IMG/VR virus record: IMGVR_UViG_2703718819_000006
DNA: 64,000 nucleotides
From: a virus
Lineage: Duplodnaviria > Heunggongvirae > Uroviricota > Caudoviricetes
Reading direction: 5' to 3' (one strand)
Shown piece after piece: positions 6,967 through 36,325 of this stretch (position 1 is the first letter of the stretch; each line of letters begins with the position of its first letter). The translations under genes were made by a program, and so were the position numbers. Under the pieces are notes generated by a model that was not told the origin of the DNA, did not search any database, and worked only from the letters and a program-made list of their open reading frames with translations.

Positions 6967-7536
6967 TCAAATGAGAGACTTAAGAACATCGCGCACCTGG
7001 CGGAACTGATCTGTTTGCATACCGGTATGGATGGCAGCCACCGCATCAGCCAAATGTTCGTTTTTGTTCACGAGAACATCCTGTCCAGATTGCTTACGAC
7101 GCAGCCACGGTGCTTTAGGGTGTTTTTTCGTAGCCCACTGGATAATCTCTTCTTTCGATGTAGTAAGTTTATTGCCGACAAAATGCTTGATTTCGTTTGG
7201 AGTAACCTGGATCAATGGCTTATCCACACACGCAAGTACACCGATACAAATACCGTAAGACGTCTGCGAACGAGAGTTTTGGCTCCCAACCGGTAGCTCA
7301 CAAAAAACCATATTTGCCTTATCAATGATTGGCTTCGCAACACGCCATATTTCACTGGCTCGGCGCAGATCGTCACTGTTCACACGAACGGTCTTTTTGT
7401 TACTCCCCGCTTTAGTCTCAACAAGAGTAAGGCCGTGAATCTCAAGTTCGTCCGTCTCAAGGTCTAAAGTGCCCACAGCAAGCCCAAAGTTGCTCATTGA
7501 GGGATCAACACCAACTACGCTGATTTTTTTACTCAT
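6967..7536 (-). CDS. RuvC-like Holliday junction resolvase
   Basis: 189 aa; N-terminus VVGVDPSMSNFGLAVG resembles the RuvC first strand (ILGIDPG...); C-terminal HLADAVAAIHTG. Confidence 0.6.
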   Translation of the reverse strand: MSKKISVVGVDPSMSNFGLAVGTLDLETDELEIHGLTLVETKAGSNKKTVRVNSDDLRRASEIWRVAKPIIDKANMVFCELPVGSQNSRSQTSYGICIGVLACVDKPLIQVTPNEIKHFVGNKLTTSKEEIIQWATKKHPKAPWLRRKQSGQDVLVNKNEHLADAVAAIHTGMQTDQFRQVRDVLKSLI

Positions 7537-11764: not shown

Positions 11765-12409
11765 TTACAGCGCGTCAGTGGGCTTTTTACGCGCTGCGTT
11801 TATGCTTATGACGCCAGCTTTTGGACGTGGGTCAACAAGGTTAAGCTCTTCTTCACTGTGGTATTCGAGGTCGAACTCACGTTTTACATGTCTGATGTAG
11901 ATTGCGGTGAGTAGGCTATCTTTGGTCAAAAAGTGTCCGTAGGATTTGCGGATCACTTCTTCAACCTTCTCGATTTTCTCACCACCCATGCAGAGGTGAT
12001 TAAACCGGCTGTGTTTCCGCAACATCTCGTCAACTGGGCCTGAGTAAACCTTGTCTACTTTCCCAAAACGAATGATTTTTCCTGTATCTGCGGATACAAG
12101 GCAAATCAGTTTGTCTGGTGATAAACGATCTCGCCACGTCACACCTGAACGGAGTGTGTTGAAGTAGGGGGCATCCAATCCGATGATCGGTTTACGAAAT
12201 GCGAGCAATGGAACGTACCTAATACAACTATTCAAATGAAAGTTCACACCAGCCTTATCAAGTTTAATTCTGGTTTCGTAGATCGGGCACTTCGCCGCTA
12301 TACCGCAGATATCACAAAGTAACTTCTGCTTATTCAGGTTGGAATTTGATTCGATAGTGTAGGAGCCGTCCTCAAGACGACGAACCCAGCGCGTGCGTTT
12401 TAGATCCAT
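11765..12409 (-). CDS. hypothetical protein (Cys-containing, possible zinc-binding)
   Basis: 214-aa ORF with CDICGIAAKC; no family recognised. Confidence 0.45.
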   Translation of the reverse strand: MDLKRTRWVRRLEDGSYTIESNSNLNKQKLLCDICGIAAKCPIYETRIKLDKAGVNFHLNSCIRYVPLLAFRKPIIGLDAPYFNTLRSGVTWRDRLSPDKLICLVSADTGKIIRFGKVDKVYSGPVDEMLRKHSRFNHLCMGGEKIEKVEEVIRKSYGHFLTKDSLLTAIYIRHVKREFDLEYHSEEELNLVDPRPKAGVISINAARKKPTDAL

Positions 12410-12496
12410 AATCGTTTTTTCAGTAGTTATTGGCCGATGCTACGATAACTCATTAGGCATACCTTAATCTGCATTTGCCTGTTTACTTATCCCAGT

Positions 12497-12568
12497 TATC
12501 CACTGGATAGATCCAAATAAGAGATCCCAAGTAAGATCAAATAGAAGATCCAAAGAGATCCCCGATCG
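12497..12568. promoter_or_regulatory. DnaA-box-like site plus GATC cluster (origin-proximal module A)
   Basis: TTATCCACT at 12497-12505, then six GATC sites within about 60 bp (12510-12568) embedded in about 11-bp direct repeats. Confidence 0.5.
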
Positions 12569-12610
12569 CCTCTAGCCGTTGCGGTTACTGGTCTGAAAGG
12601 GTGTTGCCAT

Positions 12611-12710
12611 CCACTATGGAGAGCAAAGAAACCTCTGTAGAGAGCTGAATAACCGCTATGAAGAGTAAAACAACCACTCTGGAGAGCTGTATATATCCAC
12701 TGTAGAGAGT
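12611..12710. repeat. iteron array A (5 direct repeats, about 21-bp period)
   Basis: CCACTATGGAGAGC / CCTCTGTAGAGAGC / CCGCTATGAAGAGT / CCACTCTGGAGAGC / CCACTGTAGAGAGT starting at 12611, 12632, 12653, 12674, 12697. Confidence 0.7.
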
Positions 12711-12720
12711 AGAGCACATT

Positions 12721-12880
12721 GTCTTTTATGGATAACTTAATGACTTAATTCTTCATTAACATACTGATATACATAGATATATTTTAAACTCTACTCTTAG
12801 TCATGATTCTTATGTCCTTAAATATCCACAGAAGAGTAGAGTTACCTGTTCTTGAAATCCTCTGATTTTTATCCACAGGC
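12721..12880. promoter_or_regulatory. AT-rich spacer with perfect DnaA box (TTATCCACA at 12869-12877)
   Basis: Visibly AT-rich stretch between the two iteron modules; consensus DnaA box at its right edge and a near-consensus ATATCCACA at 12822-12830. Confidence 0.45.
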
Positions 12881-12991
12881 CCGATCCAGTAATTCAGATC
12901 ACAAAGAGAACCAAAGAGACCCATAAAGACCCAATAAGATCCCCGCCCACCTCAAACCGTTGTGCCATCTGCCTTCAGACATGATCGATAT

Positions 12992-13110
12992 CCACTATAG
13001 AGAGCGAATAATCCACTATAGGGAGCAAAGCAACCACTATAGAGAGGAGAAAAACCACTATAGACGGTAGGATAACCGCTGTGATGAGTGCTACTATCCA
13101 CTGTAATCAG
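12992..13110. repeat. iteron array B (6 direct repeats, 21-bp period) immediately upstream of rep
   Basis: CCACTATAGAGAG-type cores at 12992, 13013, 13034, 13055, 13076 (degenerate) and 13097; preceded by GATC sites at 12883, 12897, 12938, 12983. Confidence 0.75.
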
Positions 13111-13151
13111 CAAAGGCCACCAAAGCCGTCGAATAACAAGAGACATTTGGA

Positions 13152-14207
13152 ATGAGCGAAAACGGCAATAAAAACATAGCGATCGTTGAAGCATTTTCAG
13201 AAACAGATAAAAAGACAGGCGAAGTTGTTACGTTGGTTCCTAACACTAATAACACTGTTCAGCCTGTTGCTTTGATGCGTCTGGGCCTCTTCGTTCCGAC
13301 GCTGAAATCGACATCCAGAGGAAGAAAGGGGCAAATGGTCTCTATGGATGCCTCTGCTGAACTCAAACAGCTGTCTCTGGCAAAAGCCGAAGGGTACGAA
13401 GACATAAGGATCTCTGGCCTTCGGCTTGATATGGATAACGACTTTAAAACGTGGGTGGGAATAATCCACGCGTTTGCCAAACACAAGGTCGTTGGCGATA
13501 CTGTCACGTTGCCGTTCGTTGAGTTTGTAAGGCTGTGTGGCATTCCGACCGCCAGGTCATCAGCGAAGTTACGCAAACGCCTGGACAGTTCGCTAAGCCG
13601 TATTGCCACAAACACCATCTCGTTCCGTAGCAAAGGCTCTGATGAGTTTTACGTAACGCATCTTGTGCAAACGGCAAAATATAGTGTCAAGCACGATACG
13701 GTCGAACTGAAAGCAGATCCCAAGATTTTCGAACTCTACCAGTTCGACAAAAAGGTTCTTCTGCAACTCCGGGCTATAAACGAACTCTCAAGAAAAGAAT
13801 CCGCTCAGGCGCTTTATACTTTTATTGAAAGTTTGCCGCCTGATCCGGCACCAATATCACTAGCCCGTTTACGCGCCAGACTTAATCTGACAAGTCGCAC
13901 TATTACTCAGAATGCGACGGTAAGAAAGGCTATGGAACAGCTGCGAGAGATAGGATATCTCGATTACACGGAAGTTAAGCGCGGAAACTCGGTCTACTTC
14001 GTCATCCACTATAGGCGGCCAAAGTTACGCCAGGCACAAATATCAACAAAAATCGATAATGATGAGACGGAATATAGCCTCCCAGATGAGAATCAAGATG
14101 ACATTATCGACGTTGTGCCTGACGAAAAAGAAGGCAAAATGGTCATGTTGAGTAAAGAAGAACTGGCACTTCTCGAAGAGTTGCGCAAGGCAAAGACTCG
14201 CAAATAG
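13152..14207 (+). CDS. repA: iteron-binding replication initiator (RepA/RepE-like)
   Basis: 351-aa plus-strand ORF flanked on both sides by iteron arrays; the segment [13 protein letters not shown]...[14 protein letters not shown] parallels the RepE region AMRLYESLCQY...IVSLKIDWIIERYQL as I recall it. Confidence 0.65.
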
Positions 14208-14212
14208 CCCAA

Positions 14213-14690
14213 CCACTGTAGTTAGTAGTAAGGCTCACTATCCACTGTAGTGAGCCTTACTTATATCTGTAATTCGCTATCCACTATAGTGAGTATCGTT
14301 ATCTGTTGATAACCACTGTAGGCAGTAGAATGCAAATACTGAATTAAATGTTAGTGATCACTAACACTGATGAAACAAGGGCTGCGAGGTTAGTGGTCAC
14401 TGGGTATCTTGGAAAATTTACTGTCTATAGTGGTTGTTGTCGCCCTCATCTTTGAGCGTATCCACTGTGGCGAGTGGATATCCACTGAAAACAGCAAAGG
14501 CTTACTCACCATAGTGGATACCCGCTGGACATCTCACTCCAATACTCACCATAGTGGTTGTTTGATGCGAATGAAAGGCTGTCTACTCGCTACAGTGGTT
14601 AGCAGATATGTAGGAAGGTTTTGTTACTGACTACAGTGGATAATGAGCTGGATACGAATGCGGTGAGCAGACTACTCACCGCAGTGGTTG
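14213..14690. repeat. iteron array C downstream of rep (at least 10 copies, both orientations)
   Basis: Forward CCACT(G/A)TAG copies at 14213, 14244, 14279, 14311; inverted C(T/C)A(T/C)AGTGG copies at about 14417, 14495, 14535, 14588, 14629, 14682. Confidence 0.7.
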
Positions 14691-14729
14691 GTGCTATTAG
14701 TGTATTTTCTTCAACAGACCCCAAAGTGT

Positions 14730-14909
14730 TCAGGCTTTTGTAGTCAGTTTTCCTGTTTCTGGATCGTACATACGCCATTCACGCCGCTGGTGGACGATAT
14801 ACCCATCTTCACGTTCCAGACGCTCAAGAATGCCAGGCTGCTTGAAACCCTTAGCACGCCAGTAGCCGCTTGTTTTCTCGATTTCCAGACCTGCCAGTGT
14901 TAATGCCAT
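14730..14909 (-). CDS. small hypothetical protein (59 aa)
   Basis: My translation MALTLAGLEIEKTSGYWRAKGFKQPGILERLEREDGYIVHQRREWRMYDPETGKLTTKA; its ATG overlaps the stop of the upstream gene (TAATG). Below the ORF-track size cutoff. Confidence 0.3.
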   Translation of the reverse strand: MALTLAGLEIEKTSGYWRAKGFKQPGILERLEREDGYIVHQRREWRMYDPETGKLTTKA

Positions 14910-36238: not shown

Positions 36239-36325
36239 TGGCGGAGAGTAATGGAATCGAACCATCATCGCTTGCGCAATGGGACGGTTTTCAAGACCGC
36301 TTGAGCACCATGCTCCCTACTCTCC
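36239..36325 (-). tRNA. tRNA-Ser (anticodon UGA), type II with long variable arm
   Basis: Hand-folded: acceptor GGAGAGT/ACTCTCC, anticodon loop CTTGAAA, T-arm GATGG-TTCGATT-CCATT, encoded CCA. Confidence 0.75.

Follow-up and report, generated by a model that had tools for sequence, protein, structure and literature searches.

The Locus and Its Genes

The region described here lies in a 64,000-nucleotide stretch of viral DNA, which is referred to below as the window. A 742-bp intergenic region, containing the whole interval of GATC sites and DnaA boxes, separates a divergent gene for a 214-aa protein from repA, and a field of repeats follows repA:

11765-12409, leftward, divergent: 214-aa gene, conserved, accompanying the origin in all relatives
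12487-12735: module A, with an intact core and five iterons
12736-12859: spacer between the modules, AT-rich and poorly conserved
12869-13114: module B, with a perfect DnaA box and six iterons, and with GATC in only three of six heptamer-like units
13152-14207, plus strand: repA, encoding a 351-aa Rep3-family initiator (Pfam Rep3_N and Rep3_C)
14211-14697, both strands: downstream iteron field (incA-like), with eleven cores

The repA product matches Pfam Rep3_N (E = 1.3e-10) together with Rep3_C, shares 47.5% identity with P1 RepA (E = 1e-71, tblastn) and 44% with the "RepFIB" RepA of P1-like phages, and is called RepA in the annotations of phage Cyrano and of plasmids. Downstream of the gene, iteron cores occur on the plus strand at 14211, 14240, 14279, 14311, and 14460 and on the minus strand at 14425, 14509, 14549, 14590, 14631, and 14679, a field in the place that the nine incA iterons occupy in P1; one further core, at 14004, falls within the 3' end of repA.

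Over the 2.1 kb around the origin, the sequence is 99.9% identical to Escherichia phage Cyrano (pLF82 of E. coli LF82) and equally near to approximately 60 plasmids of 100-125 kb from E. coli, E. albertii, and Shigella. The origin region is 83% identical to that of Salmonella phage SSU5, and the intergenic region finds matches of about 80% in Y. pestis pMT1, S. Typhi pHCM2, and Enterobacter plasmids. NZ_CP029421, which is 99.9% identical over the same 2.1 kb, is typed as IncFIB (MOB-suite/PLSDB typing), as are pMT1, pHCM2, and the Enterobacter relatives, without exception. The copy number of Cyrano has been measured at ~5.5 per cell (PMC9928086). Among the public records inspected, none carries an annotation anywhere in the intergenic region, origin included, and the searchable literature yielded neither an experiment on this replicon nor an account of its origin, in a search that did not extend to the original pMT1 and pHCM2 papers (1998-2002). 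A comparison of 12300-14800 with Rfam gave no structured-RNA match at E ≤ 1. The phage itself encodes a methyltransferase of the Dam family (PF05869). Two minus-strand open reading frames (12496-12717 and 12952-13194) overlap the repeat arrays, are annotated in no record, and were taken as spurious.

Two Tandem Modules

Repeat analysis showed the interval to be duplicated in tandem at a period of about 373-381 bp (families D1, D8, D9, and D15). The interval thus consists of two tandem paralogous origin modules, not of one origin with an AT-rich center. The distal module, module A, is composed of the following elements:

12487-12504, plus strand: tandem DnaA-box position, aligning with the P1 DnaA protein_bind annotation (L002, 828-845)
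12509-12567: array of six Dam sites in AGATCC-type GATC heptamers, spaced 7-13 bp apart
12568-12607: G+C-rich spacer between heptamers and iterons
12609-12713, plus strand: iterons A1-A5, cores at 12609, 12630, 12651, 12672, and 12695, pitch 21-23 bp
12727-12735, minus strand: inverted DnaA-box-like site TATGGATAA, right boundary of the module

At the left edge, a degenerate DnaA box with three mismatches (TTATCCCAG, 12487-12495) is followed by TTATCCACT (12496-12504), which is identical to the second DnaA box of P1 oriR; the relatives carry TTATTCACA at the tandem-box position, which fits the relaxed consensus TTWTNCACA. By analogy with P1, the heptamer array is probably both the target of SeqA and the region that opens, and the iterons are presumed to be RepA binding sites. 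The G+C-rich segment between them is the most stable DNA locally and is homologous to the GCCGCGCC stretch of P1, SJ46, and F. An inverted box equivalent to that at the right boundary (GTGGATAA or GTGCATAA) immediately follows the distal iterons in relatives from Rahnella, Pantoea, Scandinavium, and Tolumonas, and such a box recurs in most lineages. The core of module A lies ~640 bp from repA.

The proximal module, module B, repeats this plan in altered form:

12869-12877, plus strand: perfect DnaA box TTATCCACA, paralogous to 12496-12504
12882-12944: decayed heptamer array, paralogous to 12509-12567, with a 10-bp period (TRF)
12945-12988: G+C-rich spacer, ending in the GATC at 12983
12990-13114, plus strand: iterons B1-B6, cores at 12990, 13011, 13032, 13053, 13074, and 13096

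Relatives carry TTATACACA at the DnaA box of this module. Within the array, GATC is kept at 12883, 12897, and 12938, and the other units read GAACC (12908), GACCC (12918), and GACCC (12928). The iterons of module B are presumed to form the repA operator/promoter region; their position corresponds to that of P1 incC, which holds PrepA. Module A has 112 bp between its DnaA box and first iteron, compared with 108 bp in P1 and 120 bp in module B.

GATC Clusters and DnaA Boxes

The first-pass annotation of this DNA, made from the letters alone, had reported six GATC sites packed into about 60 bp and four more at 12883-12986, and all of these coordinates are right. The first group spans 58 bp (12510-12567), with sites starting at 12510, 12523, 12535, 12547, 12557, and 12564, that is, at spacings of 13, 12, 12, 10, and 7 bp, and TRF describes it by a 12-bp unit, AGATCCAAAGA. 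The second group starts at 12883, 12897, 12938, and 12983. Clusters of this kind had been compared to Dam/SeqA-controlled origins such as oriC and P1 oriR. The 64-kb window holds 276 GATC (4.3 per kb) against 246 expected from its base composition, and GATC is therefore not generally enriched; the first cluster, however, stands far above this background. It is the sole maximum of the window, with fewer than four sites in every other 60-bp stretch, and has a Poisson probability of 2.7e-7 per window of that size, or ~3e-4 when corrected for ~1100 such windows. By themselves, the four sites of the second group, spread over 104 bp, lack significance, as ~0.7 such windows would be expected by chance. 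The meaning of this group comes from its paralogy with the first group and its conservation in relatives, by which it is assigned to the decayed second copy of the module.

The perfect DnaA box at 12869-12877 (plus strand) was likewise found where it had been placed. The near-consensus boxes accompanying it, previously given as two, number three, each with one mismatch:

12496, plus strand: TTATCCACT
12727, minus strand: TATGGATAA
12822, plus strand: ATATCCACA

A perfect box on its own says little, since 0.49 are expected per window and two are seen; four boxes with at most one mismatch within 382 bp have a probability of 1.3e-5 at the window's own rate. Moreover, the positions of the DnaA boxes are conserved across the P1 RepA/RepFIB family.

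Iterons and the AT-Rich Spacer

The upstream iterons have a 21-bp period and fall into a group of five (12609-12713) and a group of six (12990-13114), with the general core AWCCRCTRTAG. An earlier suggestion that their core, ATCCACT, resembles that of a DnaA box holds for five of the eleven; the others read AACCACT, AACCGCT, or AACCTCT. Because P1, SJ46, F, and the Klebsiella plasmids have iterons of unrelated sequence, the likeness is not a trait of the family, and iterons acting as DnaA boxes were not adopted as part of the mechanism. None of the eleven upstream cores contains GATC.

An AT-rich block had also been described between the GATC groups, at 12721-12880. Such a block exists, but it is narrower: the AT content is 72-78% only over 12720-12820 and drops to 62-65% from there to 12880. 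It falls within the top 1% of least stable 40-mers of the window and is the least stable DNA of the region. Across 12717-12859, however, the sequence is 72% AT here and 56-60% in relatives, and only 52% of alignment columns are invariant, the lowest value of any segment. A conserved unwinding element was accordingly rejected as a family feature, the block being AT-rich in this lineage only and the least conserved segment; from its sequence, it is probably a weakly constrained spacer. Drift can account for its composition, given that the overall G+C content of pLF82 (46.2%) is lower than that of pHCM2 (50.6%) and pMT1 (50.2%). Opening may nevertheless occur here in this lineage, as this is by far the easiest DNA to melt. 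The spacer also contains an orphan iteron/DnaA-like site:

12822-12841: ATATCCACAGAAGAGTAGAG

The IHF consensus WATCAANNNNTTR has no match in the spacer, where two minus-strand hits with one mismatch are the only approximations. The idea that the spacer is a remnant of a second repA was discarded: when 12717-12868 was aligned locally with the leader and the 5' end of repA and with the downstream region, the scores did not rise above chance level.

Comparison with Known Origins

The first-pass annotation had likened the GATC cluster to P1 oriR, and this resemblance is supported by base-for-base homology of the core next to a RepA that is itself homologous to P1 RepA at the identity given above. 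Positions 12487-12570 align position for position with the DnaA site and Dam methylation sites 1-5 of P1 oriR, the common order being tandem DnaA boxes, five Dam-site heptamers, GATCG, and a G+C-rich stretch; P1 cttatccacaTTATCCACTGGATAGATCCAataat...gatcc...ctgatcg, then gccgcgcc, aligns with window positions 12486-12580, and the 20-mer TTATCCACTGGATAGATCCA is identical in the two cores. The P1 record (AF234172) runs from the DnaA site and Dam methylation sites 1-5 through five incC iterons (PrepA) and repA to nine incA iterons. The same cassette precedes different iterons in SJ46, F RepFIB, an SSU5-like plasmid of K. michiganensis, and E. coli pSLy3, and it occurs in Rahnella, Pantoea, and Xenorhabdus replicons as well. 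Such recurrence identifies the DnaA box, GATC heptamers, and G+C clamp as the conserved core of the P1 RepA/RepFIB family, while the iterons co-vary with each RepA.

The locus thus shares with P1 oriR a homologous Rep3 initiator and the succession of DnaA boxes, five GATC heptamers plus GATCG, G+C spacer, five iterons at 21-bp pitch, repA, and downstream iterons. Unlike in P1, the cassette is duplicated, its intact core lies ~640 bp from repA instead of ~250 bp, and the repA-proximal copy has lost three of six GATC sites. The iterons are unrelated (AWCCRCTRTAGAGAG here, GATGTGTGCTGGAGGGAAA in P1), and those downstream of repA occur in both orientations. P1 has three DnaA boxes between its iterons and repA, whereas the right-hand box here is single and inverted. 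P1 is maintained at roughly one copy per chromosome, and the copy number reported here is ~5.5; because the Cyrano value exceeds that of P1, copy control may differ between the two.

Several literature reports on P1 and its relatives bear on how the core might work. The P1 and ColV-K30 replicons are reported to require origin methylation (PMC2865523), and this need does not act through initiator binding, since the iterons contain no GATC (PMC2865523). DnaA is by itself able to begin opening the P1 origin, a step much assisted by RepA (PMC5043065); the second set of P1 DnaA boxes can provide a secondary route of activation (PMC4980987). The 7-13 bp spacing of the GATC sites and the GATC-free iterons described above fit a P1-like picture of Dam and SeqA control. 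SeqA binding reportedly needs two or more separate hemimethylated GATC sequences, as the title of a 1999 paper by Brendler and Austin states it.

RepFIB of F and P307 and REPI of pColV-K30 are similarly comparable: close relatives and the exact-match plasmid are typed IncFIB, and F RepFIB has the same core, in which TTATCCACA is followed by five GATC heptamers and then iterons. F RepFIB differs in being a single module with iterons unrelated to those here. Features characteristic of P1 oriR/RepFIB replicons are indeed found together at this locus, namely a Rep3 initiator gene, about five 21-bp iterons, downstream iterons, DnaA boxes at the edges, and heptamers with a G+C segment, the last being complete in module A and partial in module B, where three of six units are GATC. 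These replicons otherwise have a single origin abutting repA, with the repA promoter in the iterons; the presence of two cassettes here is a difference of layout, not a failure of mechanism.

The likeness to E. coli oriC is more general, comprising DnaA boxes and clustered GATC sites, which in oriC are sequestered by SeqA when hemimethylated (PMC5043065; PMC2865523). In contrast to oriC, each module has one or two DnaA boxes and neither a DnaA-oligomerization region nor a 13-mer unwinding element, and there are a plasmid-encoded Rep and iterons. Methylation is not essential for initiation at oriC, although it is reported as essential for P1 (PMC2865523). An oriC-type chromosomal origin was ruled out by the small number of DnaA boxes, the Rep gene, and the iterons. 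The chromosome II origin of V. cholerae, ori2, has a DnaA box, an excess of GATC, SeqA sequestration, and an absolute requirement for Dam (PMC6090056), and as an iteron-type origin with a DnaA box and over-represented GATC it resembles this locus. However, its initiator, RctB, belongs to a different family, and the GATC sites of ori2 lie inside the initiator-binding sites, where methylation is needed for RctB binding, whereas here they form a separate heptamer array. The absence of GATC from the iterons ruled out an ori2-type origin.

The neighborhood of the cluster also raises the question of whether it is a replication element at all. It lies ~100 bp upstream of the divergent 214-aa gene, and a Dam-dependent transcriptional switch acting on that gene or on repA, with the DnaA boxes incidental, would be in keeping with this position, with the constant company of that gene and the origin in all relatives, and with the overlap between the GATC at 12983 and a weak promoter-like -35. 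A promoter scan yielded four consensus matches against 2.2 expected, a number within reach of chance, all of them weak or lineage-specific: the best (12756-12783) is not conserved in SSU5 or pMT1 and was set aside, those in the proximal iterons are weak, and no promoter-like site was found inside the GATC array. Such a switch is very improbable when the array has no promoter-like site, when the cassette has different neighboring genes in F, SJ46, and the Pantoea replicons, and when the homology extends base for base to an experimentally defined P1 oriR core. The locus is best explained as the region from which an SSU5-like (pLF82/Cyrano-type, IncFIB-typed) phage-plasmid replicates as a plasmid-prophage, an origin made up of two tandem paralogous modules of the P1 oriR/RepFIB family.

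Conservation of the Two Cores

An alignment of six sequences (the window, SSU5, pMT1, pHCM2, an E. ludwigii plasmid, and E. coli p1919D62-2; 77-81% identical overall) was used to compare the modules. In the array of module A, all 24 GATC bases are invariant, as opposed to 25 of 41 other bases (Fisher p = 2e-4), a contrast that is indicative rather than strong because five of the six sequences represent only two or three lineages. The module B sites at 12883, 12897, and 12938 are invariant too, and the GATC at 12983 is lost in E. coli p1919D62-2. The three remaining units of module B are non-GATC in every aligned relative, so the decay predates this clade. Invariant columns make up 75% of array A, 80% of array B, 80% of the module A iterons, and 82% of the module B iterons. 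Module B is thus not simply decaying: its array is as conserved as that of module A, its DnaA box is perfect or nearly so, and heptamers 1 and 5 are always GATC. It may thus still initiate replication, or bind SeqA and DnaA.

A wider survey was performed by a degenerate-pattern scan of one genome per species combined with RepA alignment, leading to 80 loci with RepA 62-91% identical. The hosts include Kluyvera, Buttiauxella, Yersinia, Rahnella, Pantoea, Erwinia, Xenorhabdus, Photorhabdus, and a Tolumonas MAG, and every host genus found belongs to the Enterobacterales or Aeromonadales, orders that carry Dam and SeqA. Cores were sought with an nhmmer profile in the 1.3 kb upstream of repA, for which 79 loci had enough DNA, the window counted. 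Two cores are present in 39 of these, the distal one at about -560 to -665 and the proximal one at about -250 to -290; 15 have a distal core only, and 25 have a single proximal core of P1-like arrangement. Most distal-only loci that were inspected (L023, L032, L046, and L055) have kept the proximal iterons, with neither a DnaA box nor a heptamer core before them; two from Photorhabdus look more like single modules with a long leader. The distal array is kept in all 54 loci with a distal core (three to seven GATC, at least four in 53 of them), and where two cores coexist the distal array is richer in GATC in 37 of 39 (mean 5.4 versus 3.6), although these loci are not phylogenetically independent. 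Heptamers 1 and 5 are GATC in every copy examined, and heptamers 2-4 of proximal copies decay to GAACC, GACCC, GTTCC, or GCTCC. From the 39/15/25 layouts and the GATC comparison, it follows that the distal core is the one preserved wherever there are two sets of iterons. Single-module relatives all have their origin at the position of module B, directly before repA, an observation that counts against placing the origin in module A.

Proposed Division of Labor between the Modules

Considering the homology, architecture, and conservation pattern observed at the locus, the most likely arrangement is one in which module A would act as a Dam/SeqA- and DnaA-dependent origin of the P1 type and module B has been kept as the repA operator. 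We infer the dependence on Dam, SeqA, and DnaA by homology, extrapolating from P1 and pColV-K30, and the site of opening and the allocation of roles to A and B in the same conditional sense. Initiation would begin with host DnaA binding the left-edge box or boxes of module A, and probably the inverted right-edge box as well. RepA would then bind the five iterons at 21-bp pitch, and the two proteins together would open the adjacent array of GATC heptamers, for which full Dam methylation of the six sites would be needed or at least favorable. After passage of the fork, the hemimethylated array, with its sites 7-13 bp apart, would be bound by SeqA and become temporarily refractory to re-initiation. 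Module B most likely functions mainly as a RepA-autoregulated operator/promoter of repA, its iterons adding to copy control along with the eleven downstream ones. Such an arrangement would most simply have arisen by tandem duplication of an ancestral P1-like origin, after which the distal copy would have stayed under selection as a Dam-methylatable, DnaA-flanked core and the proximal copy would have been kept for its iterons while its core decayed or disappeared.

The position of module B speaks for the opposite allocation, with the origin in B and with A as an accessory that provides extra iterons for handcuffing or incompatibility and a SeqA-binding sink that tethers or times the plasmid. 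Indeed, B stands where P1, SJ46, F RepFIB, Klebsiella plasmids, and 25 Pantoea replicons have their single origin, and it holds the sole perfect DnaA box of the two modules. Yet it is A that has an intact canonical GATC core, that of B being decayed; wherever a relative has lost one core, it is the proximal one; and A combines a P1-like geometry with DnaA boxes at both flanks. Methylation of the P1 heptamers is also reported as essential (PMC2865523). On balance, it is quite unlikely that B is the origin and A its accessory.

Alternatively, both modules may work, module A as a fully Dam/SeqA-sequestered origin and module B, with half the GATC, as a largely escaping back-up or higher-frequency site. 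No class of element is missing from module B, which has a perfect DnaA box, heptamer-like repeats of 10-bp period, six iterons, and a G+C spacer before them; 80% of its array is invariant among relatives, and H1 and H5 are still GATC in all proximal copies examined. Cyrano is present at ~5.5 copies per cell, and the second DnaA-box set of P1 offers a precedent for a secondary activation route (PMC4980987). Nonetheless, the proximal core has been lost in 15 of 54 distal-core relatives with the proximal iterons kept, which indicates that this core is dispensable, and the box-to-iteron distance of module B is 8 bp over the 108-112 bp of P1 and module A. Two working origins are thus possible but unlikely, and module A as origin, with module B as repA operator, remains the preferred and reasonably likely reading.

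Implications

Mechanistically, the locus represents the known P1 type, but its layout is new: the origin is duplicated and its proximal core is decaying, an organization that a large subfamily shares. Since the mechanism is textbook P1 biology, the surprise is modest. It offers a testable case of origin duplication followed by division of labor between origin and operator. Should both modules fire, they would form a natural origin pair under different epigenetic control, the distal one fully open to sequestration by Dam and SeqA and the proximal one largely escaping after the loss of half its GATC, an idea that we put forward as doubtful. If true, a cell-cycle-coupled origin and a less restrained one would lie side by side, for example, to sustain a copy number of ~5 or to serve a lytic switch, and the 39/15/25 layouts would record a repA operator evolving from a duplicated origin in a large IncFIB-like subfamily.

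Phage-plasmids of the pLF82/SSU5/pHCM2/pMT1 type are common in E. coli, Salmonella Typhi, Yersinia pestis, Enterobacter, and Klebsiella, and according to the literature searched, phage-plasmids as a class often carry resistance genes. A P1-type Dam/DnaA core predicts that these elements are restricted to Dam+/SeqA+ hosts, and the origin core at 12487-12735 is a target for mini-replicons, vectors, and incompatibility typing.

Decay of the proximal core and the gene beside the origin

The proximal core, in which three of the six heptamer units are still GATC in the window, retains more of these sites in some of the RepA relatives surveyed. In several Pantoea and Erwinia loci of that survey (L033-L039, L042-L045, L052-L054 and L057), four to five GATC sites are still present; in these cores, the decay that the window displays is at an earlier stage.

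On its distal side, the origin is directly adjoined by a gene:

11765-12409, minus strand: gene encoding a 214-aa protein

The Cyrano annotation describes this product as an ASCH-domain protein, and a search of the window's protein against Pfam gave no match. The gene likewise adjoins the origin in the pLF82, SSU5, pMT1 and pHCM2 relatives inspected, as well as in a Klebsiella SSU5-like plasmid. E. coli pSLy3 has an IS91 transposase inserted between the gene and the origin core.

Promoter-like and DnaA-box matches

The best sigma-70-like match of the origin region, TTAACA-16-TATATT (10/12; 12756-12783, plus strand), lies within the AT-rich spacer and is oriented towards repA. When aligned with SSU5 and pMT1, neither of its hexamers is conserved. 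The sole further perfect DnaA box in the window, TTATCCACA (7220-7228, plus strand), is located inside or beside coding sequence, approximately 5 kb from the origin. Because the chance expectation is about 0.5 perfect boxes per window, this box is probably fortuitous.

The 3' end of repA

Directly 3' of the repA stop codon (14207), a strong hairpin spans 14217-14271, with a perfect 15-bp stem and a folding energy of -26.3 kcal/mol (z = -5.0 against shuffles); it was also detected as an inverted repeat in the repeat analysis of the window. The iteron core at 14240 falls within the loop and one arm of this structure, and the iteron at 14211 is overlapped by its flanking stem. The hairpin may represent the repA terminator, or else a palindromic iteron pair. 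A perfect iteron core, ATCCACTATAGGCGG, also occurs inside repA itself, towards the 3' end of its coding sequence (14004-14022), as a putative RepA site.

Relation to phage Cyrano

The window carries tRNA genes:

36239-37218, minus strand: four tRNA genes (Ser-tga, Thr-tgt, Tyr-gta and Asn-gtt)

Only three tRNA genes (Asn, Thr and Ser) are annotated in the Cyrano record; therefore, outside the replicon, the window is closely related to Cyrano but not identical to it. Beyond the part corresponding to the window, Cyrano (OV696614, 77467-78060) encodes its own 197-aa adenine methyltransferase, assigned by Pfam to the Dam family (PF05869, E = 2.5e-38). If GATC is the target of this predicted enzyme, it could methylate the origin heptamers without host Dam.
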